DNA from: Bacteroidia bacterium
Lineage (GTDB): Bacteria > Bacteroidota > Bacteroidia > 2-12-FULL-35-15
Length of the DNA: 64,000 nt
Assembly (NCBI GenBank): GCA_016786925.1
Contig: JAEUTU010000026.1
Location: 18,044-82,043, forward strand
Reading direction: 5' to 3'
Position numbers and translations under genes: made by a program. The notes beneath the pieces are model-generated. The model made no database searches, was not told where the DNA came from, and was given only the letters and a program-made list of their open reading frames with translations. Positions within the stretch are counted from its first letter, which is position 1. Each line of letters begins with the position of its first letter. This document shows positions 32,376 through 45,193 of this stretch, one piece after another.

Positions 32376-33626
32376 CTACTCAATATTCTTCATATTCAGC
32401 TTCCTCAACTTAGGAGCTATTTTAGCAGTGGCAGCAACAATCAGAATGGTCATGATGCCACCAAATACTACTGATGCTTTTAAGCCCATCGCACGGGCTG
32501 CTACACCCGATTCGAATGCACCGATCTCGTTCGAGGAGCCAATAAAAATACTGTTTACAGAAGATACCCGCCCACGCATATGATCAGGCGTTGCCAGTTG
32601 CAGAATACTATGACGGATCACCACGCTCACATTATCGAATGCTCCGGTAAGGAATAAAAAGAAAAGTGACAGGTAATAATTTTCACTGATCCCAAACAGA
32701 ATCGTAGCTACACCAAATGCTGCTATGGATAAGAATAAGTTTCTGCCTGCATGTTGGGTAGGTGGTTTGTAGGCAATGATGATCGCCATGACCACGGCAC
32801 CCAATGCCGGAGCAGCTCTCAAGAATCCCAACTCGATCGCGCCTACATGTAAAATCTTGTCGGCAAAAGCAGGAAGCATCGCTACCGCTCCTCCAAACAA
32901 TACAGCAAACAGGTCGAGCGACAAAGCACCGAGGATCAATTGATTCTTAAATACAAATTTGATCCCTGCACTCAAACTTTCAAACAGCGTTTCTGTTTTT
33001 TCTTTTTTAGGAAGTGGTTTCGATTTAATAAATAAGAATGAAAAGATCGCAATGGCAATTAAAGCAATGTTCACTTTATAGGCAGCCGTAAAACTCACCG
33101 CACAAATAAATCCTGCCATAGCCGGACCAACAATGGAGGCTACATGCCATACTGTGCTGTTCCAGGTAGCTGCATTGGTGTACAGGTCGCGTGTAACCAA
33201 TTGCGACATGAACGAAGGAAATGCTGCTGAGATAAATCCTCTAACGATACCAATGAATCCGATCACCAAAAAGATAGGCAGCGTGCCATGATCTTTAATG
33301 ATCGTGTTTGTTTCTAATGAGAAATACAGTAATGCTAAAGTGGATACAGTTAGAAAGGATGTGGCTGTAATGATGATCTTTTTTCTGTCTACCGTATCGG
33401 CTACATGGCCTGAAAATAAGGAGACAGTGATAAAAGGGATGGCTTCCGCCAATCCAATTAATCCAAGATCCAGCTCATTTCCTGTGATCTGATACACTTG
33501 CCATCCAACAATAACACTCTGCATTTGAATAGCCAGTGTTAAAAAGAAACGGGTATTCAAGAAGAATAAAAACTCTTTTATTCTTAATACAGCATACGGA
33601 TCGTGTTGGGATGTTTTCTTTGTCAT
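32376..33626 (-). CDS. MFS transporter
   Basis: 12-TM protein, 416 aa, with an MFS-like D-R/K motif between TM2 and TM3 (GHVADTVDRKK). Confidence 0.7.
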   Translation of the reverse strand: MTKKTSQHDPYAVLRIKEFLFFLNTRFFLTLAIQMQSVIVGWQVYQITGNELDLGLIGLAEAIPFITVSLFSGHVADTVDRKKIIITATSFLTVSTLALLYFSLETNTIIKDHGTLPIFLVIGFIGIVRGFISAAFPSFMSQLVTRDLYTNAATWNSTVWHVASIVGPAMAGFICAVSFTAAYKVNIALIAIAIFSFLFIKSKPLPKKEKTETLFESLSAGIKFVFKNQLILGALSLDLFAVLFGGAVAMLPAFADKILHVGAIELGFLRAAPALGAVVMAIIIAYKPPTQHAGRNLFLSIAAFGVATILFGISENYYLSLFFLFLTGAFDNVSVVIRHSILQLATPDHMRGRVSSVNSIFIGSSNEIGAFESGVAARAMGLKASVVFGGIMTILIVAATAKIAPKLRKLNMKNIE

Positions 33627-33669: not shown

Positions 33670-34296
33670 ATGATAACAGACAGCGCTAAGATCAGTATTC
33701 CGAACATCGATAATGAGATGAAACAACAGTTAATGGACAACGGTACCATTAAGAATTTCAAAGCAGGAGATGTTATTTTGCAGGAGAACAGTTATATCAA
33801 GACACTTCCTATTGTATTACAGGGAAGTCTGAAAGTAATGCGTGAGGAAGAAGACGGAAAAGAGATCCTGTTATACTATATCAAAGCGGGTGAGACCTGT
33901 GTGATGTCGTTCCTTGGTGGTATCAGCAATGATAAAAGTAAAGTGAAAGCTGTTGTGGAGGAAGATTCAGAGATCTTGTTGATCCCGATTCATAATGCGC
34001 AGGACTGGGTGTCGAAATATCCTTCCTGGTGCGATTTTATATTCAAATTATATCACAAACGTTTCGAAGAGCTTTTGTCGGTGGTGAATGCCATGGCTTT
34101 TCAAAAGATCGATCAGCGTATTGTGGAATTACTTAATAAAAAATATCAGCTTACCGGTAATAAAGAGATCAGTGTTACGCATCAGCAGCTGGCCGATGAG
34201 TTAGGCACTGCCCGTGAGGTGGTTTCCCGCCTTTTAAAACAACTTGAAAGAGAAAAAAAGATCAGTCTTTCCCGCAATAAGATCACTATTTTATAG
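33670..34296 (+). CDS. Crp/Fnr family transcriptional regulator
   Basis: N-terminal cNMP-binding beta-roll. C-terminal HTH (THQQLADELGTAREVVSRLLKQLE). 208 aa. Confidence 0.8.
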   Translation: MITDSAKISIPNIDNEMKQQLMDNGTIKNFKAGDVILQENSYIKTLPIVLQGSLKVMREEEDGKEILLYYIKAGETCVMSFLGGISNDKSKVKAVVEEDSEILLIPIHNAQDWVSKYPSWCDFIFKLYHKRFEELLSVVNAMAFQKIDQRIVELLNKKYQLTGNKEISVTHQQLADELGTAREVVSRLLKQLEREKKISLSRNKITIL

Positions 34297-34388
34297 CTAT
34301 GTGATATATATCACTGACCTGTGTTTGTAAAGCGTTGTAATTTTGTGTCGTAAATAAATTAGTATTCACAACCAAAACCAACGAAACA

Positions 34389-34595
34389 ATGAAAAAAAAC
34401 ATGGGAAACATCGACAGGATCATCAGAGTACTGATCGCTCTTGTTGTAATTGCACTTTATTTTGCAAATGTAATTTCAGGAACTGTAGCAATCGTATTGC
34501 TTGCTTTATCAGGTATCTTTATCCTGACCAGCCTTATCAGCTTCTGTCCTTTGTACACGATATTCGGAATAAATACATGTAAGAAAAAAGACTAA
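34389..34595 (+). CDS. DUF2892 (YgaP C-terminal-like) small membrane protein
   Basis: 68 aa, two TM helices, IDRIIRVLIALV...FCPLY motif characteristic of DUF2892. Confidence 0.7.
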   Translation: MKKNMGNIDRIIRVLIALVVIALYFANVISGTVAIVLLALSGIFILTSLISFCPLYTIFGINTCKKKD

Positions 34596-34675
34596 TTCCG
34601 GATAAAGAAAGCTCCATTCAGTTGGGCTGGGGAAGAGGAGCTTTATTTTTTGTAATCAATTAAAACTATATAAAA

Positions 34676-34957
34676 ATGAAATTAGATGAATTAATTAAAT
34701 CGAACAAAGCTACGATCGTAGATGTTCGTACACGTGAAGAATTTAGAGGTGGTAATGTAGCAGGATCGATCAACATTCCTTTGAATGAGATCCCGCAACG
34801 TATGGATGAATTGAAAGCCATCGAACAACCGATCGTATTGTGCTGTTTATCGGGTGGAAGAAGCGGCCAGGCAACCATGTATTTGATGCAACAAGGTTTC
34901 AAAGATGTGCACAATGGTGGTTCATGGTTAGATGTAAATTATTATAAAAACAACTAA
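34676..34957 (+). CDS. Single-domain rhodanese (sulfurtransferase)
   Basis: Active-site loop CCLSGGRSGQA with catalytic Cys. 93 aa. Confidence 0.85.
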   Translation: MKLDELIKSNKATIVDVRTREEFRGGNVAGSINIPLNEIPQRMDELKAIEQPIVLCCLSGGRSGQATMYLMQQGFKDVHNGGSWLDVNYYKNN

Positions 34958-34967
34958 GAAAACAGAT

Positions 34968-35279
34968 ATGTTAGACGGAATTAAAAAACTATTCGGGATG
35001 GGTCCTAAAGTGGACTTGGGCGAATTAATAAAAAATGGTGCTATTATCCTGGATGTGCGTAGCAAAGGTGAATATGCAGGCGGACATGTAAAAGGTTCGA
35101 TCAATATTCCACTGGATCAATTGGGTAGCAACCTTGCTAAATTGAAAAAAGATAAAGTGATCATCACGTGTTGCGCTTCCGGTATGAGAAGCGGTGCAGC
35201 CAAAGGTCAGCTGAAAAGCAAAGGCTACGAGGTACACAATGGTGGCAGCTGGATGAGTGTTAACCGTTACGTAAAATAA
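34968..35279 (+). CDS. Single-domain rhodanese (sulfurtransferase)
   Basis: Active-site loop CCASGMRSGAA. 103 aa. Paralog of the upstream gene. Confidence 0.85.
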   Translation: MLDGIKKLFGMGPKVDLGELIKNGAIILDVRSKGEYAGGHVKGSINIPLDQLGSNLAKLKKDKVIITCCASGMRSGAAKGQLKSKGYEVHNGGSWMSVNRYVK

Positions 35280-35280
35280 A

Positions 35281-35529
35281 ATGTCGTTCTTCTCTTTCCT
35301 TTCCGGATGGAATGTTGTCCGCATACTTCGTTTGTTCATAGGGCTGGCTGCTTTGGCAGCCGCCTATTATGAGCACGATAAGTTAATGGGCTTGCTGGGA
35401 GCGGTATTCACTGCTCAGGCAGTTTTTAATGTGGGATGTTGCGGCATGTCGGCTTGTTCGACAGATGCCTACAGGAAACCCGGAATGGAAGAAAAAGAAA
35501 TAGAATTTGAAACAATAAAAAAAGATTAA
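35281..35529 (+). CDS. DUF2892-like small membrane protein with Cys cluster
   Basis: 82 aa, [17 protein letters not shown]...GCCGMSAC. Topology similar to 34389..34595. Confidence 0.5.
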
Positions 35530-35534
35530 AAACC

Positions 35535-35831
35535 ATGGCAACATTTAATGAAATTATAAATTCGGATAAACCCGTGTTGGTTGATTTTTCAGCCGAGTGG
35601 TGCGGTCCTTGCAAAATGATGGCGCCTATCTTGAAAGACTTGGCAGGCCAGGTGGGTGATAATGCCAGCATCTTAAAAGTAGATGTGGATAAGAATCCAA
35701 AAGCAGCAAGTGCTTATCACATACAAGGTGTACCAACCTTGATCCTATTTAAAAATGGTGAAGTGAAATGGCGCCAATCAGGCGTTGTTCCTGCCGAAAA
35801 ACTAAAACAAATCATAGACTTACATTCATAA
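35535..35831 (+). CDS. trxA: Thioredoxin
   Basis: WCGPCK active site, 98 aa. Confidence 0.9.
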
Positions 35832-36586
35832 TGAAAAAGAACAAATTTAAAATAGCGGGAATTTTATTCCTTGTGTTGACAGCAGCTTTTACTTCTTGTA
35901 AACAAGGTGCTAACCAGAATGGTGTGGGTGGAACGATCTCAGCCGATGAGTTCGAGAAAAAGTTAGCTGCCACTGAAAATGCACAGATAGCGGACGTTCG
36001 TACTCCCGGAGAATATTCCGAAGGACATATTAAAAATGCATTGAACATCAATTGGAATGGCGATTCGTTTGAAGCCGACATCCAAAAGATGGATAAGAAT
36101 AAACCTGTATTTGTGTATTGTTTATCAGGCGGAAGAAGCTCCAGTGCTGTAAGCAAAATGGTAGCCTTAGGTTTTAAAGAGATCTATGAATTAGACGGTG
36201 GAATGCGTGCCTGGTACAATGGCAATAAGCCGGTAGATACTGGGAATGCAGCTCCTGCAGCTCCAGGTCAGGAAAAGCCACAAGGAATGAGCTTGACGGA
36301 ATATGAGAAAATATTAAGTACCGATAAATTGGTATTGGTTGATTTTAATGCGGTATGGTGTGCACCCTGCAAACAAATGTCGCCTTGGTTGGATGAAATT
36401 GCAGCTGACATGAAAGATAAAGTGGTAGTGTTAAAATTGGACGTGGAAGAGAACAAGCAGATCGCAGATATGTTGCAGGTTGAAAATTTACCAACCCTAT
36501 TGCTTTATAAAAATGGTAAGGTAGTTTGGAACGGTGAAGGCTTAACATTGAAAGACGTGATCGTGGATGCGATCAATAAAAACTAA
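35831..36586 (+). CDS. Lipoprotein with N-terminal rhodanese domain fused to C-terminal thioredoxin domain
   Basis: Lipobox LTAAFTSCKQ. Rhodanese loop YCLSGGRSSSAV. Thioredoxin WCAPCKQM. ATG at 35831 chosen. Confidence 0.75.
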   Translation: MKKNKFKIAGILFLVLTAAFTSCKQGANQNGVGGTISADEFEKKLAATENAQIADVRTPGEYSEGHIKNALNINWNGDSFEADIQKMDKNKPVFVYCLSGGRSSSAVSKMVALGFKEIYELDGGMRAWYNGNKPVDTGNAAPAAPGQEKPQGMSLTEYEKILSTDKLVLVDFNAVWCAPCKQMSPWLDEIAADMKDKVVVLKLDVEENKQIADMLQVENLPTLLLYKNGKVVWNGEGLTLKDVIVDAINKN

Positions 36587-36590
36587 GGAT

Positions 36591-37031
36591 ATGGCAAACG
36601 AACATTATTACGATATCGATCTTGTATGGAGATCGGATCGCATGGGAGAAGTGAGTTCTCCTGTATTGAATGAAAAAATTGAAGTGGTAACTCCTCCTGA
36701 ATTTCCGAAAGGAATTGCAGGGAAATGGTCGCCCGAACACTTTTTCACTGCAGCTGTTTCCAGCTGTTTTATGACCACCTTCTTAGCGGTTGCCGAAAAT
36801 TCTAAATTGGAATTTGTAAGTCTGGAAGTAAAAGCAAAAGGAAAATTAGAAATGGTGGAAGGCAAATACATGATGAGTGAAGTAGAGCTGAAACCTGAGT
36901 TGGTGATTGCCAAACAAGATGATCAGGAAAGAGCATTACGTATTTTAAATAAATCGGAAGTGGCTTGTTTGATCTCTAATTCCATCAAATCGAAGATCGT
37001 ATTTGTTCCTGAAATTTTAATAAAAAATTAA
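36591..37031 (+). CDS. OsmC/Ohr family peroxiredoxin-like protein
   Basis: Two conserved Cys in the OsmC arrangement (SSCFMTT ... EVACLIS). About 146 aa. Confidence 0.65.
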   Translation: MANEHYYDIDLVWRSDRMGEVSSPVLNEKIEVVTPPEFPKGIAGKWSPEHFFTAAVSSCFMTTFLAVAENSKLEFVSLEVKAKGKLEMVEGKYMMSEVELKPELVIAKQDDQERALRILNKSEVACLISNSIKSKIVFVPEILIKN

Positions 37032-37044
37032 TATTGTTCCTGAT

Positions 37045-38649
37045 ATGAACCGTTTTCTTTTTATCCTTTTCTTTTTAATTAATATGCTGGCATTTGGCCA
37101 ACAAGCTCAGACCTTTTCTGTAGAAATTGAAGAGGATACTATTCCTGGTATGCAAGGCCTACAATCATTTGTTGTTGGTCAGGCGCAAGGAAAATGGCTG
37201 TTTATTGGTGGACGGAAAGATGGTTTGCATCAGCGACAACCCTTCTCTTCATTTCTTGCTTCAGGAAATAATACAAACATATATGTGATAGATCCTGTTA
37301 GTAAGCAATTTTGGTTAGCTTCATTAAACACGCTTCCACAGGGAATTCAAGAGCAATTGCAATCAACGAATATTAATTTCAAACAGGTAAACGATCTTTT
37401 ATACATTATAGGAGGATATGGTTACAGTACCACTGCTGCTGATCATATTACATATCCGAATATTACAATTGTAAATGTAAGTTCAACTATTAATGCAATC
37501 ATTGCAAGCAGTTCTATTACCAGCTTTTTTAGACAAATTACTGATCAACGAATGGCTATTACCGGTGGTCAGTTGGAGAATATTGATAGTGTTTTTTATT
37601 TGGTGGGTGGTCATCGATTCGATGGACGATACAATCCAAATAATAATCCAACATTTACCCAAACTTATTCAGATGAAATAAGAAAATTTAAGATAAGTGA
37701 TAATGGAACTACGTTCTCTATCTATGACTATATTGCAATTAATGATCCTGCAAATTTACACAGGAGGGATTATAACTTAGTTCCACAGATATTTCCAACC
37801 GGAGATTTTGGTTTTACTGCCTTTACAGGTGTTTTTCAACCTGTTCAGGATCTTCCTTGGCTCAATACGGTTGACATTAAATCGAATGCGTATGCTGTTA
37901 ATAATACTTTTAGCCAATACCTGAGTCAATATCACAGTGCAAAAATGCCGTTATGGGATTCAACTAATAATGAAATGCATTCTATCTTTTTCGGAGGAAT
38001 GAGTCGATATACATTGGATACTTCTACTAATACCTTAATAGATGATGTAAATGTACCATTTGTTAAGACGATTAGTCGTGTTACCCGTGAAAGTAATGGT
38101 AATATGATGGAGTACAAATTGCCTATTGAGATGCCCGCTCTTTTAGGCTCCGGTGCAGAGTTTATAAACATTTCTTCAGATGCTTATTTGAAAGAGGGGA
38201 TTATAAGTTTAAATAGATTACCTATGGCAAGAACATTAGTTGGTTACATTTATGGTGGAATAGAAAGTACACTGCCGAATATTTTTTTCATTAACAACGG
38301 AACTCAAAGCGTAGCTAGTTCAAGATTATTTAAGGTGTATATTAATAAGAGTCCCTTAACATCAACAGCTAAGCCGCAAAAGCTTGATAATGATATGTTC
38401 TCTGTTTTTACTTATCCCAATCCTGCTGACCATGTGATAACGATCAATGTTAAATCTCAAATCACAGGTGATTTAAAAATAATATTACAAAATGAAAAGG
38501 GTGAAATGGTAAGTACAATTGTTGAAACAAAAATAAAACACGGTAACCATGAATATATCTGGAACAGAACTAGAGAAAAAAGTGGAGTTTATTTTGTTGT
38601 CAGTCAAATAGGTAATGTCATCAAAACAAGTAAAGTCATTCTTAAGTAA
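37045..38649 (+). CDS. Secreted beta-propeller-like protein with T9SS C-terminal sorting domain
   Basis: Signal peptide. Repeated GG(R/Y) motifs suggest Kelch-like blades. The C-terminal 85 aa matches the Por CTD (FSVFTYPNPADHVITIN...GVYFVVSQ). Confidence 0.55.
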   Translation: MNRFLFILFFLINMLAFGQQAQTFSVEIEEDTIPGMQGLQSFVVGQAQGKWLFIGGRKDGLHQRQPFSSFLASGNNTNIYVIDPVSKQFWLASLNTLPQGIQEQLQSTNINFKQVNDLLYIIGGYGYSTTAADHITYPNITIVNVSSTINAIIASSSITSFFRQITDQRMAITGGQLENIDSVFYLVGGHRFDGRYNPNNNPTFTQTYSDEIRKFKISDNGTTFSIYDYIAINDPANLHRRDYNLVPQIFPTGDFGFTAFTGVFQPVQDLPWLNTVDIKSNAYAVNNTFSQYLSQYHSAKMPLWDSTNNEMHSIFFGGMSRYTLDTSTNTLIDDVNVPFVKTISRVTRESNGNMMEYKLPIEMPALLGSGAEFINISSDAYLKEGIISLNRLPMARTLVGYIYGGIESTLPNIFFINNGTQSVASSRLFKVYINKSPLTSTAKPQKLDNDMFSVFTYPNPADHVITINVKSQITGDLKIILQNEKGEMVSTIVETKIKHGNHEYIWNRTREKSGVYFVVSQIGNVIKTSKVILK

Positions 38650-38734
38650 ACTTTTCGTTGGTTGGAAAGGGGGATTGAATTTTTATTCGTCCCCTTTTTT
38701 TGTGTTTAGCTGCATTATTGATTACCTTTGTTAT

Positions 38735-39145
38735 ATGAAGTTGATTCTGGCTTTATTCTTCTCTTTACAGATCATCACAAACAATGCGTTTGTGGAGGAT
38801 ATCGCCCGTATTCCCTCTTTAATTCACCATTACGAACATCATCAGCACGAAGAAACTCCGGGAATTTCTTTCCTTGACTTTATTGCCATGCATTATACTA
38901 CTAATGCAGTTGCTGATACCGATGCAGTTGCTGATACCGATGCCGATCACCATTCATTGCCTTTGAAACATGCCAATGATGCCGGACATGTGCATTTAAT
39001 TCCTGCTTTTACAATTCCTGAGTCTCAATCAGGACTTTCTGTTGTTTACACAGAAGTAGAACATTTTACGTATTACCCTGAATTCATTCCAAACCACAAT
39101 TTGGATGCGATCTTTCAGCCGCCTAAGACTTCTATCTTATCTTAA
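38735..39145 (+). CDS. His-rich small secreted protein upstream of the metal efflux pump (putative metal-binding)
   Basis: Signal peptide, HHYEHHQHEE cluster and a tandem AVADTD repeat. Internal ATG chosen. Confidence 0.5.
   Translation: MKLILALFFSLQIITNNAFVEDIARIPSLIHHYEHHQHEETPGISFLDFIAMHYTTNAVADTDAVADTDADHHSLPLKHANDAGHVHLIPAFTIPESQSGLSVVYTEVEHFTYYPEFIPNHNLDAIFQPPKTSILS
38906..38941 (+). repeat. Perfect 18-bp tandem repeat x2 (gcagttgctgataccgat) inside the CDS
   Basis: Direct reading of the sequence. Encodes AVADTD-AVADTD. Confidence 0.9.
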
Positions 39146-39201
39146 TTTAGGCGTTTTCGACTATTTTCAATAGTCATTTGTTTCATTAATATTTCATTTT
39201 T

Positions 39202-42200
39202 ATGTTAAATAAGATCATAGAATTTTCTGTGAAGAATAAACTTATAATAGGTTTATTCATCATCGCATTGATCGCTTATGGTAGCTATCAGTTTACCAAA
39301 TTACCGATCGATGCCGTACCCGATATTACTAATAATCAGGTGCAAGTAATTACCGTTGCTCCTTCTTTGGGTGCAACCGACATTGAACGTTTGATCACAT
39401 TCCCGATCGAATTAGCCAATAGCAATATCTCCGGTTTGCACGAGATCAGAAGTTTTTCACGCTTCGGACTTTCCATCGTAACCATCGTTTTTGATGATGA
39501 TATTGATGTGTATTGGGCACGACAACAAGTGGCGGAACGATTGCAACAAGTGCAAGATGAGTTGCCAAAAGGTGTAGCGAACGTGTCATTGGGTCCCGTA
39601 ACTACCGGACTTGGCGAGATCTATCAATATTCTGTTCGTGCAAAAGAAGGCTACGAGCATAAGTACGATGCCATGGAACTCCGCACCATTCAGGATTGGG
39701 TAGTTAGACGACAATTGTTAGGAGTAAAAGGTGTTGCGGATGTGAGTAGTTTCGGAGGGAAGTTAAAACAATATGAGATCGCGGTAGAGCCGGCAAAGTT
39801 AAAAGCATATAACATCACCATTAACGATGTGTTTGCTGCACTTGAGAGTAATAACCAGAACACCGGTGGCGCCTACATCGAAAAAGGTCCAACCGTGCTG
39901 TATATCCGTAGCGAAGGGTTGGTAGGCAGTGTGGACGATATCAAGTCGGTCTTCATTAAAAATACTTCTAATGGAACACCGCTGTTAATCCGTGATGTGG
40001 CCGATGTACGTTATGGATACGCTACCCGTTATGGCGCTATGTGTTATAACGATAAAGGAGAAGTGGCAGGCGCTGTGGTGATGATGCTAAAAGGGGAGAA
40101 CAGCAGCGAAGTGATCAAAAATGTAAAAGAACGTGTGGCGAAGATCCAGAAAACATTACCCGAAGGTGTAGTGCTGGAGCCCTTTTTGGATCGTACCAAA
40201 ATGGTAAACAATGCTATTGGTACGGTGGAGACCAATTTGATTGAAGGTGCTTTGATCGTATTGTTTGTATTGGTTCTGTTTTTAGGTAACATCAGAGCAG
40301 GTTTACTCGTGGCATCGGTCATTCCTTTAGCCATGTTATTTGCCATCATCCTCATGAATTTGTTTGGCGTGAGTGGTAACCTGATGAGTTTAGGTGCGCT
40401 GGACTTTGGTTTGATCATTGACGGAGCGGTTATTATTGTCGAAGCCTTGTTGCATACCATTCAACACAATAAAAAACTAACGGCAGGCTCCGTGATGAGT
40501 TCTTCCGAAATGGATTCGCAAGTGAAACATTCAGCAGGTAAAATGATGAACAGTGCGGTCTTCGGACAGATCATCATTCTGGTTGTGTATCTGCCGATCT
40601 TTTTTCTGGAAGGGATCGAAGGAAAGATGTTCAAGCCCATGGTTCAAACCGTTGTGTTTGCCTTGTTAGGTGCATTTGTTTTATCATTGACCTATGTGCC
40701 GATGATGAGTGCTTTGATCATCAGCAAAAAGATCAGCCACAAGAAAACTTTTTCGGATAGAATGATCGAGTGGATAGAGCGTAAATATCAAAAAGCCTTA
40801 GAAAAAGTATTAGCATTTCCGAAAGTGGTGATCACGACTGCATTATCGCTTTTTGCGATTGCATTATTGGTGCTTTCGAATATGGGTGGTGAATTTATCC
40901 CTGCTTTGGAAGAAGGCGATTTTGCGGTGGAAACACGTGTGCTTACCGGTAGTAATCTAACAACCACCATTGAAAGCACACAACGTGCTGCCAAAATTTT
41001 AAAGGAACGTTTTCCGGAAGTAGAGCAGGTGGTAACAAAGATCGGAAGCGGAGAGATCCCAACCGATCCTATGCCGATGGAAGCTGCCGATATGATGGTG
41101 ATATTAAAAGATAAAAAAGAATGGACCTCTGCGAAGAACTTTCCGGAGTTGTCCGAAAAAATGAGTGCAGCCGTTTCAGAAGTTCCCGGTATCACTACCA
41201 GTTTCCAGTTCCCGGTGCAAATGCGATTCAATGAATTGATGACCGGTGCTAAGCAGGATGTGGTGTGTAAGATATTTGGTGAGAACATGGATACATTGGC
41301 GCGTTATGCTCAGCAGTTAGGCGAAATGGTAGCTACTGTGGAAGGTGCAAAAAATATTTATGTAGAGCCGGTTTCCGGAATGCCACAGGTGATCATTGAA
41401 TACAACCGTGCTGCCATTGCTCAATACGGATTGAATATCATTGATATCAATCGTGTGGTGAATACCGGATTAGCAGGCCAAACCACCGGAGCTGTTTATG
41501 AAGGAGAAAAGAAATTCGACATGGTGGTTCGTTTGGATGGTGAGCAAAGAAAGAATATGGATGATATTAAGAACTTACTCATCCCAACGGCTCAAGGAAC
41601 TCAGATCCCATTGTATCAATTGGCCAATGTAGAGTTAAAAGAAGGTCCAAATCAGATACAACGCGAAGATGCCAAACGCAGGATCATTGTTGGATTTAAT
41701 GTGAAAGATCGTGATGTACAGTCGATCGTAACAGAGCTGCAAAGCAAAGTAGAAAAAGGAATTAAATTCCCTGCAGGTTATTATGTAACTTATGGCGGTG
41801 CATTCGAAAATTTGAATGCTGCCAAAGCCCGCTTGAGTATTACGGTTCCTATTTCATTGTTATTGATCTTCTTGTTGTTGTATTTCTCTTTTAATTCGAT
41901 CAAGCAAGGTTTGTTGATCTACTCTGCCATTCCACTTTCAGCGGTGGGAGGGATCTTTGCCTTGGCATTGCGTGATATGCCTTTCAGCATCTCTGCAGGA
42001 GTGGGCTTCATTGCCTTGTTCGGTGTAGCCGTGTTGAATGGTATCGTATTGATCGCTGAATTCAACCGCTTAAAAGAAGAAGGCTGGAGCGATACACGTA
42101 AGATCGTTTTAATGGGTACCAAGATCCGTTTACGTCCTGTACTCATGACCGCCTTTGTGGCATCCTTAGGCTTTTTGCCGATGGCGATCAGTAACGGTGC

Positions 42201-43563
42201 CGGTGCTGAAGTACAGCGTCCTTTGGCAACAGTGGTGATCGGTGGACTCTTGATCGCAACATTTTTAACTTTATTTGTTTTGCCTACACTCTACATCCTG
42301 TTTGAAAAAGGCTTCGATAAAAAAAGCAAAAAGATCCAACCTGTTTCAGCTATCGTATTGGTAATTGCTGCATGGTCGTTCACTGCATCAACAGCCCATG
42401 CACAACAACCTATTGCTTTAAAAGCAGCTATCGATTCGGCTTATAACAACAACTTATTGCTGAAATCGGATAAGTTGAATGTAGATGCCTATGCTAAATT
42501 GAAACACTCTGCATGGGATCTTCCGCAAACAGAAGTAATAGGAGAGTATGGTCAGGTAAACAGTGCATACACGGATACCAAGTTTGGAATAGCGCAAAGC
42601 TTTAAATTCCCTACGGTGTATCTCAAACAGAAAAGTGTGCTGACGAATGAATGGAAAAATGCGGAGTTGAACTTAGAAGCCAGAAAAGCAGAGTTGAAAA
42701 AAGAAGTGAGTACCACCTATTATGAATTACTTTACACCATGCGTTTAAAAAAGGTGTTGACCGAAACCGACAGCATCTATTCCTTGTTCCTTAAAAATGC
42801 AGAGTTAAAATTCGCAAAAGGAGAAAGCAATATCCTTGAGCGCAACATGGCCGAAGCAGAGCGCGGACAGATCCGCATACAGTTGCAACAGATCGAGATG
42901 GAGTACAATAAACTGCTGAGCGACATGGCTTTGCTCTTGAATACCAAAGTGATCTATGTGCCGGATACAAATGCAGAAGAGTTAAATGCGACTTTGGTTG
43001 CCGATTCATCGTCTATCGCACAGCATCCATTCATCAAACAATTGGAATTGCAAAATGCCATCAGTCGCTCGAAGTTAAAATTGGAAAAAGCGAAGATGCT
43101 TCCCGATCTTTTTGCCGGCTACAATAACATGAGCATCACCGGAGTTGGTGCCGATAATGTGTATTACAGTTCCTCTGCACGTTTTCAGTCTGTTCAGGCT
43201 GGTGTTGGTATTCCATTGTTCTTTGGTGCTCAACGCTCCCGCATCAGTGCCATGAAGATCGATCAGCAGATCTCAGAAAATAATAAGCAGGCGGGAGAAA
43301 TGATGTTTCAGACAAAATATAGAAAAGCAGTGCAGGAGTACAATGCCAATTTGAAAATTGTGGAGTATTATAAAACCACTGCCAATAAAAATGCAGATGA
43401 AACGCTTGTTGCTGCTAACCTGCAATATATGAATGGTAACATCAATTACCTGGAATGGGTTATGCTCAGCAACCAGGTGGTGGCTACCAAAGCAGAATAT
43501 CTGAATGCATTGAGAAAATTGAACAACAGCATAGTTGAAATAAATTACATCACTAATAAGTAA
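39202..43563 (+). CDS. CusA/CzcA-family heavy-metal RND pump fused in-frame to a TolC-like outer membrane factor (OMF)
   Basis: The first roughly 1040 aa are RND permease, with 12 TM segments and two large periplasmic loops. A linker and hydrophobic segment follow (VSAIVLVIAAWSFTASTAHA). The last roughly 390 aa form an OMF/TolC-like domain with coiled-coil repeats. Confidence 0.8.
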   Translation: MLNKIIEFSVKNKLIIGLFIIALIAYGSYQFTKLPIDAVPDITNNQVQVITVAPSLGATDIERLITFPIELANSNISGLHEIRSFSRFGLSIVTIVFDDDIDVYWARQQVAERLQQVQDELPKGVANVSLGPVTTGLGEIYQYSVRAKEGYEHKYDAMELRTIQDWVVRRQLLGVKGVADVSSFGGKLKQYEIAVEPAKLKAYNITINDVFAALESNNQNTGGAYIEKGPTVLYIRSEGLVGSVDDIKSVFIKNTSNGTPLLIRDVADVRYGYATRYGAMCYNDKGEVAGAVVMMLKGENSSEVIKNVKERVAKIQKTLPEGVVLEPFLDRTKMVNNAIGTVETNLIEGALIVLFVLVLFLGNIRAGLLVASVIPLAMLFAIILMNLFGVSGNLMSLGALDFGLIIDGAVIIVEALLHTIQHNKKLTAGSVMSSSEMDSQVKHSAGKMMNSAVFGQIIILVVYLPIFFLEGIEGKMFKPMVQTVVFALLGAFVLSLTYVPMMSALIISKKISHKKTFSDRMIEWIERKYQKALEKVLAFPKVVITTALSLFAIALLVLSNMGGEFIPALEEGDFAVETRVLTGSNLTTTIESTQRAAKILKERFPEVEQVVTKIGSGEIPTDPMPMEAADMMVILKDKKEWTSAKNFPELSEKMSAAVSEVPGITTSFQFPVQMRFNELMTGAKQDVVCKIFGENMDTLARYAQQLGEMVATVEGAKNIYVEPVSGMPQVIIEYNRAAIAQYGLNIIDINRVVNTGLAGQTTGAVYEGEKKFDMVVRLDGEQRKNMDDIKNLLIPTAQGTQIPLYQLANVELKEGPNQIQREDAKRRIIVGFNVKDRDVQSIVTELQSKVEKGIKFPAGYYVTYGGAFENLNAAKARLSITVPISLLLIFLLLYFSFNSIKQGLLIYSAIPLSAVGGIFALALRDMPFSISAGVGFIALFGVAVLNGIVLIAEFNRLKEEGWSDTRKIVLMGTKIRLRPVLMTAFVASLGFLPMAISNGAGAEVQRPLATVVIGGLLIATFLTLFVLPTLYILFEKGFDKKSKKIQPVSAIVLVIAAWSFTASTAHAQQPIALKAAIDSAYNNNLLLKSDKLNVDAYAKLKHSAWDLPQTEVIGEYGQVNSAYTDTKFGIAQSFKFPTVYLKQKSVLTNEWKNAELNLEARKAELKKEVSTTYYELLYTMRLKKVLTETDSIYSLFLKNAELKFAKGESNILERNMAEAERGQIRIQLQQIEMEYNKLLSDMALLLNTKVIYVPDTNAEELNATLVADSSSIAQHPFIKQLELQNAISRSKLKLEKAKMLPDLFAGYNNMSITGVGADNVYYSSSARFQSVQAGVGIPLFFGAQRSRISAMKIDQQISENNKQAGEMMFQTKYRKAVQEYNANLKIVEYYKTTANKNADETLVAANLQYMNGNINYLEWVMLSNQVVATKAEYLNALRKLNNSIVEINYITNK

Positions 43564-43569
43564 ACGGTC

Positions 43570-44700
43570 ATGAAAAAATATATAGGAATTTTAGTTTCTG
43601 CAACATTATTAATGTCATGTGGAAACGATACACCAACAGAATCAGCTACAGCTGAACAACCTTTAGAAAGCATCATTCAGTTGACAGATGCGCAATTGAA
43701 AAATTCAAAGATCGCTACAGGCAAATTGGAGAAACGCGCCATCTCTTCAGTATTTAAAGTAAATGGCAGTATCGATGTGCCACCGCAAAACATGGTATCC
43801 ATCAGTGTGCCACTGGGCGGCTTTCTTCGATCCACTAAGTTGTTGCCGGGTATGCATATTTCCAAAGGAGAAGTGATCGCTACCATGGAAGATCAGCAAT
43901 ACATTCAATTGCAGCAGGAGTATTTAACAACACTTTCGGCATTGAAATATTCCGAAGCGGAATATCAACGTCAGAAAGAATTGAATGCCAGCAAAGCATC
44001 CAGCGATAAAGTGTTTCAACAGGCCGAGGCCGATTATAAAGCACAAAAGATCAGTTTACGTTCTCTGTCCGAAAAATTACAATTGATAGGAATTGATCCT
44101 ACTAAATTGGATGAGTCGAATCTTTCCAGAAGCATTTCCATCAAATCGCCTATCGATGGTTATGTGTCGGATGTGTTTGTGAATGTGGGTAAATATGTAA
44201 ATCCATCCGATGTGTTATTTGAGTTGGTGAATCCGGAAGACATTCATTTGGGATTGACCGTGTTTGAAAAGGATCTTTCCAAATTGTATATCGGACAAAA
44301 AGTATTGGCCTATACGAACAATGATCCCGGTAAAAAATATCTGTGTGAGATCATTTTAATTGGTAAGAACCTTTCTGCCGAACGAAGTGTGGAAGTGCAT
44401 TGCCATTTCGATCAATATGATAAATCATTGATCCCGGGCATGTTCATGAATGCCGATGTTGAAGTAAAGAGTCTGGAAGCCATTGCATTGCCCGATGATG
44501 CCATTGTTAATTATGGCAATACGCATTACATCTTCAAGAAAAAGGAAAACACCGTTTTTGAAATGATGGAAGTGCAAATTGGTAATTCTGAATCGGGTTA
44601 CACCGAAGTGCTATTGCCAGAAAAAGACAGGCAATCAGAGTATGTGGTAAAGGATGCGTATACCATTTTAATGAAGAGTAAAAATACGGAAGAAGAATAA
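43570..44700 (+). CDS. RND efflux periplasmic adaptor (CzcB/CusB, HlyD family) lipoprotein
   Basis: Lipobox LLMSCGN. Coiled-coil hairpin and beta-barrel regions. 376 aa. Confidence 0.8.
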   Translation: MKKYIGILVSATLLMSCGNDTPTESATAEQPLESIIQLTDAQLKNSKIATGKLEKRAISSVFKVNGSIDVPPQNMVSISVPLGGFLRSTKLLPGMHISKGEVIATMEDQQYIQLQQEYLTTLSALKYSEAEYQRQKELNASKASSDKVFQQAEADYKAQKISLRSLSEKLQLIGIDPTKLDESNLSRSISIKSPIDGYVSDVFVNVGKYVNPSDVLFELVNPEDIHLGLTVFEKDLSKLYIGQKVLAYTNNDPGKKYLCEIILIGKNLSAERSVEVHCHFDQYDKSLIPGMFMNADVEVKSLEAIALPDDAIVNYGNTHYIFKKKENTVFEMMEVQIGNSESGYTEVLLPEKDRQSEYVVKDAYTILMKSKNTEEE

Positions 44701-44731
44701 TTTCTATATTTGTGCTATAAAACTATTCCTT

Positions 44732-45193
44732 ATGAAAAAATTAGTCTTCTTATCTTGCTTATTGCTTGGAACATATTCCTATGCACAAAAGGTAAATTCC
44801 GATAATTTGCCTGAACCGGTAAAAACTGCTTTTAAAGCAAAATTTGCAGATGTTAAAAAGGCAAAATGGGAAATGGACTATGAAAATTACGAAGCAGAGT
44901 TCAAATACAATAAGAATGAAATGTCGGCTAAGTTTGATAAAACAGGAAAATGGCTGGAGACGGAATACATGATCCTTCCATCGGATCTGCCTCAAGCGGT
45001 AAAAGAGTATATGAATTCCAACTTTGCAGGTTTTGAAATTAAGGAAGCCGAAAAAGTGGAGACAGCTGATAAAGGCATTTTGTATGAATTAGATATCAAA
45101 AAGGGAGAAGCAAAGTACGAGATCTCCATCTCCGAAACCGGCAAATTGATCAGCCGTACAGATGCGAACTCTGACGAGAAAGCTAAATACTAA
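44732..45193 (+). CDS. PepSY-like (DUF2874) secreted protein
   Basis: Signal peptide. Duplicated LP..VK...KAKFA / LPQAVKEYMNSNFAG segments typical of this family. Confidence 0.55.
   Translation: MKKLVFLSCLLLGTYSYAQKVNSDNLPEPVKTAFKAKFADVKKAKWEMDYENYEAEFKYNKNEMSAKFDKTGKWLETEYMILPSDLPQAVKEYMNSNFAGFEIKEAEKVETADKGILYELDIKKGEAKYEISISETGKLISRTDANSDEKAKY

Follow-up and report, generated by a model that had tools for sequence, protein, structure and literature searches.

A gene cluster behind a Crp/Fnr-family regulator in Bacteroidota and its probable role in reactive-sulfur homeostasis

Reactive sulfur species are now regarded as a major redox signal and stress in bacteria, and the known dedicated sensors CstR, SqrR/BigR and FisR come mainly from Firmicutes and Proteobacteria. 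Bacteroidota occur in abundance in soil, freshwater and other habitats exposed to sulfide. Here we analyzed a gene cluster of a Bacteroidia bacterium (assembly GCA_016786925.1, contig JAEUTU010000026.1) that lies at positions 33670-37031 of a 64,000-nucleotide stretch of DNA, which we call the window. The cluster is headed by the gene for a Crp/Fnr-family regulator, and it was compared with the loci of related regulators across the phylum; the domain calls used Pfam and NCBIfam profile scores against curated cut-offs. The results showed that the regulator is tied phylum-wide to sulfur genes and to an operator and promoter of fixed architecture.

Eight open reading frames (ORFs) lie within 33670-37031, all on the plus strand and each at the position given by the initial annotation, which confirms the eight co-oriented genes that it had reported. 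They are, with the Pfam match values in brackets:

33670-34296, plus strand: Crp/Fnr-family regulator, 208 amino acids (cNMP_binding 5.9e-12, HTH_Crp_2 4.9e-12)
34389-34595, plus strand: DUF2892 / YgaP-like_TM protein, 68 amino acids, a two-helix membrane protein (PF11127 6.5e-24)
34676-34957, plus strand: rhodanese A, single-domain, 93 amino acids (PF00581 2.2e-14)
34968-35279, plus strand: rhodanese B, single-domain, 103 amino acids (PF00581 3.7e-16)
35281-35529, plus strand: CCG protein, named for its CCGMSAC cluster, 82 amino acids, a small two-helix membrane protein (sub-threshold DUF2892 match only)
35535-35831, plus strand: thioredoxin, 98 amino acids, WCGPC, cytoplasmic (2.4e-30; TIGR01068 114.9 bits against a cut-off of 96.8)
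35831-36586, plus strand (longest ORF from 35768): rhodanese-thioredoxin fusion lipoprotein (Rhodanese 1.1e-23, Thioredoxin 4.4e-25)
36591-37031, plus strand (longest ORF from 36567): OsmC-superfamily protein, 146 amino acids from the ATG at 36591 (PF02566 1.5e-15)

For the regulator, the two single-domain rhodaneses, TrxA, the rhodanese-thioredoxin lipoprotein and the OsmC-like protein, Pfam and NCBIfam agree with the identities first assigned. The tight spacing described for the whole cluster applies to 34676-37031, a six-gene block to which gaps of -1 to 10 nt are confined; it does not apply upstream, where 92 nt follow the regulator gene and 80 nt follow the DUF2892 gene. The ATG at 35831 overlaps the thioredoxin stop codon by 1 nt, and this codon and the ATG at 36591 are the likely true starts of the fusion protein and of the OsmC-like protein. 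The window cluster matched no Rfam family and no defence-system family.

Homologues of the regulator number in the thousands, at 57-94% identity. For comparison we used 80 loci from named Bacteroidota genomes and 5 from exact-protein look-ups; neighbours were counted over 83 loci, and the neighbouring ORFs were classed with profiles whose seed sequences came from the window and a single Mucilaginibacter locus. The sample spans Mucilaginibacter, Pedobacter, Chryseobacterium, Chitinophaga, Niabella, Fluviicola, Cyclobacteriaceae and Saprospiraceae, and includes two loci from Chlorobiales-type metagenome-assembled genomes (MAGs). The closest locus, L006 from a freshwater Bacteroidia MAG, has a regulator 94% identical to that of the window and the same gene order. 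In 72 of the 83 loci, a member of the sulfur families occupies the same-strand position directly 3' of the regulator, and these families account for 280 of 380 genes among the five downstream positions versus 3 of 335 among the five upstream ones. A sulfur-trafficking unit under a Crp/Fnr regulator, as first proposed from the window alone, is thus supported by comparative genomics. The following families were found behind the regulator:

Single-domain rhodanese: 46 loci
TauE: 37 loci
Metallo-beta-lactamase (MBL)-rhodanese fusion: 30 loci
DUF6132: 29 loci
DUF2892: 29 loci
YeeE/YedE halves: 29 and 28 loci
Thioredoxin: 26 loci
OsmC: 24 loci
CCG protein: 12 loci
Rhodanese-thioredoxin fusion: 3 loci

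The MBL-rhodanese of L004, taken as the representative, matches two structures, the CstB-type 3R2U of Staphylococcus aureus (2e-54) and 3TP9 (5.5e-73), and because of these matches we read the family as a persulfide dioxygenase (PDO)-sulfurtransferase. In 10 of the 30 loci that carry it, DUF2892, CCG or DUF6132 occurs in the same array (e.g. L034, L038, L062 and L082), and in several loci a single array combines DUF2892, CCG, DUF6132, thioredoxin and OsmC with the CstB-like dioxygenase-rhodanese, TauE and YeeE. The window genes therefore belong to one functional set with the classical sulfide-oxidation genes. The window cluster is not a sulfide-oxidation operon of the cst or sqr-pdo kind; the MBL dioxygenase stands behind the orthologous regulator in 30 other loci. 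A search of the whole 64 kb found no MBL/PDO, sulfide:quinone oxidoreductase (SQR), TauE, YeeE or DUF6132 gene, and the lack of a persulfide dioxygenase noted at the outset thus stands. Occasional array members include SulP, a YeiH-type permease, LysE, DUF983, S-adenosylmethionine (SAM) methyltransferases and an RND efflux set. Arrays with such extra genes (methyltransferase, YeiH/Cons_hypoth698 permease, LysE translocator, SulP-STAS) were seen in L012, L013, L035, L048, L050 and L053, in L029 and in L031, and possible roles for them are sulfide methylation or sulfur-anion export. Together with the enzymes of the cluster, these neighbourhoods point to reactive-sulfur homeostasis, and two other readings of them were considered.

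The regulon might serve sulfur scavenging or assimilation and respond to sulfur limitation or to the supply of thiosulfate or sulfite, in which case uptake (YeeE, SulP) and conversion (rhodanese with thioredoxin, or the dioxygenase-rhodanese) would feed cysteine synthesis. The frequency of the YeeE/YedE halves fits this idea, and in L029 a SulP-STAS permease with its own operator stands directly behind the regulator. A related PDO-rhodanese fusion, BpPRF, is among the structural matches of the MBL-rhodanese and has reportedly been proposed to function in sulfur assimilation. PspE turns thiosulfate into cellular sulfane sulfur (PMC10215317), and the cyanobacterial CysR regulates sulfate assimilation (PMC12016511). 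However, no importer can be recognised in the window version; TauE is considered to export sulfite, and dioxygenases of the CstB type are hallmarks of detoxification operons (PMC13467558); and neither OsmC nor a periplasmic rhodanese-thioredoxin is an assimilation function. We consider an assimilation regulon unlikely.

The second reading is a general thiol, electrophile or metal(loid) stress unit, directed at tellurite, selenite, chromate, heavy metals or peroxides, in which rhodanese, thioredoxin and OsmC would repair oxidised or metal-bound thiols and the Cys-rich membrane proteins would bind soft metals. Pfam confirms SAM methyltransferases in the arrays of L012 and L053, that of L053 with a weak TehB match. 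RND efflux genes adjoin the cluster in the window (39202-44700) and also border the regulon in L005 and L020, and the OEP-HlyD-RND set of L061 has an operator 52 nt 5' of it. The weak NCBIfam resemblance of cluster proteins to the ChrE rhodanese and to selenoprotein-linked families would agree with such a unit, but these matches are far under the cut-offs. Moreover, the dominant partners of the regulator are sulfur-specific (CstB-like dioxygenase, TauE, YeeE), and no metal-binding domain of the HMA, MerR or ArsR kind is associated with it. A stress unit of this type is therefore very improbable, and reactive-sulfur homeostasis is the reading that we follow below.

The loci of the regulator share a 16-bp palindrome, TGT[AG]A[CT]-N4-[GA]TNAC, in which TNAC can also be given as T[CAT]AC. 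In most loci it begins 4 nt before the last base of the regulator stop codon (e.g. at 7575-7590 in L021), so that the half-site TGTAAC or TGTGAC includes the TAA or TGA stop codon of the regulator. The window and its closest relatives differ in having the site shifted to 4-5 nt past this codon. A position weight matrix (PWM) made from 62 sites gave 115 matches in the 1.07 Mb of loci scanned, versus 23 in shuffled sequence. Of these matches, 64 sit at the regulator stop codon, and most of the other 42 intergenic ones lie 50-110 nt 5' of TauE, MBL-rhodanese, YeeE, rhodanese, OsmC, thioredoxin or DUF2892 genes. The window contains the following two elements:

34300-34315, plus strand: putative operator TGTGATATATATCACT, the highest-scoring PWM match of the whole 64 kb, at 15.1 bits versus 11.7 for the runner-up
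34338-34345, plus strand: Bacteroidetes-type -7 box TAATTTTG, read from the sequence, 22 nt past the operator

A Crp/Fnr-type site had been suggested for the interval 34297-34388, and TGTGATATATATCACT now fills that place as the best match to the family operator in the window. It is the only such site there, is kept in L006 and L001, and differs from TTGAT-N4-ATCAA by 2 mismatches. A search for a second operator before rhodanese A returned only the half-site TGTAAT, and inside the cluster nothing scored above 3.4 bits with the PWM. The "CRP-like motif" reported for Chlorobaculum (10.1101/172254) was also considered; it is a different motif and belongs to different genes.

The distance from the operator to the promoter is fixed. 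In 49 of 113 cases, the operator is followed at a set offset by the strict -7 box TAnnTTTG, which begins exactly 21 nt downstream at 42 sites and 22 nt downstream at 7 sites; the remaining listed cases mostly show nnnnTTTG at the identical offset. Among the sequences inspected, there is no TTG at the position of the -33 element, which is occupied by the operator. Because of this fixed spacing, the centre of the operator would lie near -41, the class II position, and in the window transcription would start near 34349-34352. This is the geometry of class II CRP/FNR promoters, which makes activation by the regulator the likelier mode of control; most likely, the protein acts as a transcriptional activator at about -41.

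The regulator scores 45.8 bits for PF00027 (cut-off 27.5) and 46.1 bits for PF13545 (cut-off 27), which places it in the Crp/Fnr superfamily, and a profile search of the PDB with it matches CRP, NtcA, Vfr and CooA. Every NCBIfam match is far under its cut-off, so the protein fits no curated subfamily. Its recognition helix retains R182, E183 and R187, the CRP-like R-E-x-x-x-R pattern, which in established CRP-DNA structures reads TGTGA-type half-sites. Membership in the cAMP-dependent CRP group was rejected: the CRP equivalog model NF008732 gives 61.4 bits against a cut-off of 266, and CRP Arg82 and Ser83, which bind the cAMP phosphate, are not kept but align with Lys91 and Val92 in the profile alignment. 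The redox or anaerobic control that the initial annotation read from the regulator type finds no support in the FNR sense. The N-terminal 76 residues contain no cysteine and hence no Cys cluster of the kind that ligates a [4Fe-4S] centre in FNR, and with the FNR subfamily model the protein reaches 24.7 bits, the cut-off being 228. FNR-like oxygen sensing was rejected in view of the missing Cys cluster, the CRP-type helix and the CRP-type operator.

The only conserved cysteine of the regulator, Cys77, is kept in 86 of 87 regulator ORFs, the lone exception being an unrelated paralogue. It sits in a beta-roll strand with the motif GE[ST]C[IV]MS, which in the profile alignment to CRP immediately precedes the cAMP-contacting IGELG strand. 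The closest solved structure is 3DV8, an uncharacterised Crp/Fnr protein from structural genomics, with E. coli CRP at about 1e-15. 3DV8 also has a cysteine at the position aligned with Cys77 (…MCLLS…), which hints that the Cys-in-strand feature extends outside Bacteroidota. CooA, the sequence of which was confirmed against 1FT9, reads GDMFC75MH77S in the region of its haem ligands. In the hhalign alignment, Cys77 stands opposite Phe74 of CooA, one residue ahead of the haem ligand Cys75, and because of this offset a CooA-like haem sensor is a weak possibility.

The gap between the DUF2892 gene and the six-gene block holds an additional element:

34604-34652, plus strand: hairpin with the stem AAAGCTCC/GGAGCTTT followed by a T run, an inverted repeat in the 80-nt gap between DUF2892 and rhodanese A

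The gap measures 80-84 nt across the window and L006, and in L006 the stem is kept while the loop has diverged. Assignment of 34604-34652 as an intrinsic terminator was tried; the stem is conserved, yet the folding energy does not improve on that of shuffled sequence (z = -0.3), and for this reason the function of the hairpin is uncertain. Lying between the DUF2892 gene and the six-gene block, it could act as a weak terminator or attenuator. The single eight-gene transcript implied by the initial annotation is accordingly not assured, given the lone operator before DUF2892 and the conserved hairpin with its T run.

These features also allow the cluster to be read as two independent units, in which the regulator would control the DUF2892 gene alone, the hairpin would terminate its transcript, and the six-gene operon would be transcribed from a promoter of its own, independently of the regulator. 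The sole operator of the window lies before the DUF2892 gene, the 80-nt gap keeps its stem and T run in L006, and a TAnnnTTTG-like stretch is found just 5' of 34676. Against this arrangement, in 20 of 25 loci the DUF2892 gene either overlaps the following regulon gene or is separated from it by at most 40 nt; rhodanese, CCG, thioredoxin and OsmC genes follow the regulator or bear their own operators in other species; and the fold of the hairpin does not surpass that of shuffled sequence. We thus regard two independent units as improbable, and control of the whole cluster by the regulator is the reading that we retain.

In all three rhodanese domains, the cysteine heads a six-residue active-site loop (CLSGGR in rhodanese A, CASGMR in rhodanese B and CLSGGR in the fusion), and the next residue is S in each (C-LSGGR-S, C-ASGMR-S and C-LSGGR-S). 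By fold and Cys loop, the three domains are predicted to be catalytically active sulfurtransferases. Rhodaneses A and B have no signal peptide; for rhodanese A, the best NCBIfam resemblances are to PspE and GlpE, below the cut-off. The product of 35535-35831 is a thioredoxin by both its CxxC motif and its TIGR01068 score, and the fused thioredoxin domain (WCAPC) falls just under the cut-off of that model at 95.4 bits versus 96.8, with a Pfam score of 88.1 bits versus 23.5. Read from the ATG at 35831, the N-terminus of the fusion is a lipoprotein-type signal with its cysteine, and the protein is predicted to be periplasmic. The same fusion is present in L006, L052 and L060. The OsmC-like protein scores 57.8 bits for PF02566 (27.5 required) and has the two family cysteines (SSCF and VACL), while the SACOL1771, Ohr and OsmC subfamily models remain under their cut-offs (63.1 versus 166.15, 36.9 versus 88.85 and 33.6 versus 85.8 bits).

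The two small membrane proteins, which had been taken for two copies of DUF2892, belong to one DUF2892 protein and to a distinct CCG family. The product of 34389-34595 is a PF11127 member at 84.3 bits against a threshold of 25.3, and in the family alignment it carries the conserved motif SFCPLY. The CCG protein of 35281-35529 reaches 22.3 bits for DUF2892, under the gathering threshold of 25.3, and 9 of 12 members of its family match DUF2892 weakly only, the best at 7.9e-5. Profile-profile comparison by hhalign gave a probability of 14.7% over 33 columns, limited to the first helix; the corresponding value for DUF6132 was 1.6%, and with these values no kinship of CCG to either family is established. 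The CCG family profile recovers 1116 representative clusters at E<=1e-3, all of about 80 amino acids, and has no Pfam model; "hypothetical protein" was the only source name returned among the nearest homologues. Its members share two motifs: W[NH]xxRxxRL close to the N-terminus and, where helix 2 ends, N-[VT]-G-C-C-G-x-S-x-C (GCCGxSxC). On these profiles, the CCG protein is a separate, unnamed family of about 80 residues and not a second DUF2892. We infer that the cysteines of DUF2892 and CCG lie at the cytoplasmic end of helix 2. DUF6132 is a second small membrane family with a cysteine motif, GCxSGxC. In L008, the first gene past the regulator encodes a DUF6132-rhodanese fusion, which parallels YgaP (rhodanese-DUF2892) and forms a Rosetta-stone-type link of DUF6132 to rhodanese.

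Taken together, the evidence leads us to favor, as somewhat more likely than not, the view that the window cluster is one local form of a modular regulon for reactive-sulfur homeostasis, found widely in Bacteroidota and governed by a dedicated Crp/Fnr-family regulator. By reactive sulfur we mean sulfide, persulfide and polysulfide, and possibly thiosulfate or sulfite. Rising levels of sulfide-derived species would cause the regulator to turn the unit on. The signal would probably be read either through the single invariant cysteine of the effector domain, Cys77, with persulfidation as one example, or through a small sulfur anion bound in the Cys77 pocket. The regulator would bind the palindrome at 34300-34315 and there substitute for the -33 element of a sigma-A promoter. 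Transcription would cover the DUF2892 gene and then probably pass the weak hairpin into the six-gene operon.

In the window, the chemistry would be sulfane-sulfur transfer followed by reduction, since no persulfide dioxygenase is encoded there. The cytoplasmic rhodaneses would load sulfane sulfur onto their active-site cysteines, the thioredoxin would reduce the rhodanese persulfide, and the fusion lipoprotein would perform the equivalent transfer and reduction in the periplasm. Thioredoxin is described as reducing persulfides (PMC4737208), rhodaneses as common partners in sqr-pdo operons (PMC9163753), and PspE as producing sulfane sulfur from thiosulfate (PMC10215317). DUF2892 and the CCG protein would present their cysteines at the inner face of the membrane as rhodanese partners, a role proposed because YgaP is a rhodanese-DUF2892 fusion and L008 encodes a DUF6132-rhodanese fusion. 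In versions of the regulon with the CstB-like enzyme, TauE and YeeE, persulfide would be oxidised to sulfite and thiosulfate, which would then be exported.

Several observations weigh against this interpretation. There is no SQR or persulfide dioxygenase within the 64-kb window, and a local source of sulfane sulfur is therefore not evident. The window has one operator only, and a hairpin with a T run, its stem conserved in L006, precedes rhodanese A; the six-gene block might therefore be transcribed separately. The regulator has one candidate sensing cysteine, as opposed to the cysteine pairs of CstR and SqrR. Methyltransferases (one of them TehB-like), SulP and RND genes leave room for roles in assimilation or metalloid stress. 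Finally, of the 83 regulator orthologues, about 10 stand next to genes without a link to the regulon, such as those for peptidases, SDRs or lactate permease, so their targets must lie elsewhere in the genome. The loci concerned, with the two from Chlorobiales-type MAGs among them, include L018, L045, L059, L068, L072, L075 and L078; in these regulators, Cys77 and the recognition helix are kept.

The gene repertoire of the regulon fits the list in a recent review (PMC13467558) and resembles the cst operon and sqr-pdo clusters. A close parallel is the S. aureus cst/CstR system (cstA, cstB, sqr, tauE), where a dedicated regulator likewise stands beside multi-rhodanese sulfurtransferases, a CstB-type dioxygenase-rhodanese and TauE, the latter two found here in relatives of the window. 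Unlike CstR, a persulfide sensor of the CsoR family that is a CsoR-fold repressor with a Cys pair, the regulator described here has a Crp/Fnr fold and one conserved Cys and is probably an activator at about -41. In addition, the dioxygenase, SQR and TauE of the cst system are missing from the window, and thioredoxins, OsmC and small membrane proteins with cysteines are present beyond the cst set. In E. coli ygaVP, too, a local regulator accompanies a rhodanese paired with the two-helix DUF2892 membrane domain, which Pfam names after YgaP; however, YgaP is a fused protein and YgaV is of the ArsR type, whereas here the genes are separate, the rhodanese is triplicated and the regulator is of the Crp/Fnr type. 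YgaV is listed as a persulfide sensor (PMC13467558).

With the E. coli CRP and FNR proteins at class II promoters (-41.5), the regulator has in common the fold, a 16-bp TGTGA-N6-TCACA-type palindrome, the R-E-x-x-x-R helix and a fixed distance to the -7/-10 element. It differs from them in that it is a local regulator of sulfur genes and not a global one, works with a Bacteroidetes sigma-A promoter, has Lys at the position of Arg82 and lacks the iron-sulfur cysteines of FNR. GlpE uses thioredoxin 1 as sulfur acceptor. The rhodaneses of the cluster resemble GlpE and PspE in their size of about 100 amino acids, their six-residue loop and their pairing with thioredoxin, but they score under the equivalog cut-offs (43 and 41 bits versus 102), their genes are clustered with thioredoxin, and one copy is thioredoxin-fused and lipid-anchored. 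A further comparison is with CysR of Synechococcus elongatus PCC 7942, a Crp-family protein whose gene lies near that of a periplasmic rhodanese. It is comparable as a regulator tied to sulfur metabolism (PMC12016511), a likeness by description and not by sequence, but unlike the present regulator it controls sulfate-uptake genes under sulfur limitation.

What sets the present system apart from the known ones is the class of its regulator. An August 2026 review assigns the dedicated reactive-sulfur sensors to the CsoR, ArsR and Fis superfamilies (PMC13467558). With its Crp/Fnr fold and single conserved Cys, the regulator falls outside the known sensor classes (CstR/CsoR, SqrR-BigR/ArsR and FisR) and probably represents an undescribed type of reactive-sulfur regulator, although it may still work like the known sensors. 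A wider proposal, which we put forward only tentatively, is that it founds a fourth structural class of reactive-sulfur sensors: a class II activator of the Crp/Fnr fold that reads sulfide or persulfide by a single Cys in the effector pocket, through persulfidation or, less likely, a CooA-like haem-thiolate, and governs sulfide detoxification across Bacteroidota, with the DUF2892, DUF6132 and GCCGxSxC families forming a membrane sulfane-sulfur relay with rhodaneses. We found no paper on a Crp/Fnr-type reactive-sulfur sensor or on this Bacteroidota regulon in a literature search that did not extend to every journal, so that earlier work is possible.

The control of sulfide detoxification in Bacteroidota is not described in the literature searched, and the locus offers a candidate for it. 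The regulator family has a defined operator, its promoters are rigidly built, and a single residue stands out as the candidate for sensing. Cultured strains with the full array include Pedobacter nutrimenti DSM 27372 (L034), Niabella pedocola JCM 31011 (L082), Pedobacter insulae DSM 18684 (L073) and Chryseobacterium species (L064, L074). It also gives a biological context to three tiny membrane protein families of unknown function, one of them without a Pfam model. The added value lies more in this phylum-wide regulator-operator-promoter system than in the eight genes themselves.

Around the cluster, an EntS-like transporter gene of the major facilitator superfamily (32376-33626, minus strand) is divergent from the regulator, with 43 bp between the start codons and no operator in this gap. 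A divergent 416-amino-acid gene of equal size occupies the matching position in L006 and is absent from the remaining loci. On the other side, a ninth co-oriented gene (37045-38649, plus strand) starts 13 nt past the OsmC stop codon and encodes a secreted protein of 534 amino acids, sorted by the type IX secretion system (T9SS) and with no further Pfam domain. The T9SS sorting domains in this neighbourhood mark the organism as belonging to Bacteroidota. Its G+C content falls to 0.34, from about 0.39-0.45; a gene of similar size, compared by size only, follows OsmC in L006, and none was seen in the other loci. Farther downstream, 38615-45193 holds four co-oriented genes. The first is a His/Asp-rich ORF of 176 amino acids without a Pfam match. 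It is joined by a gene for a 1453-amino-acid protein in which an RND pump (ACR_tran) and an outer-membrane factor (OEP) are fused, and by genes for a membrane-fusion protein and a PepSY-like protein.

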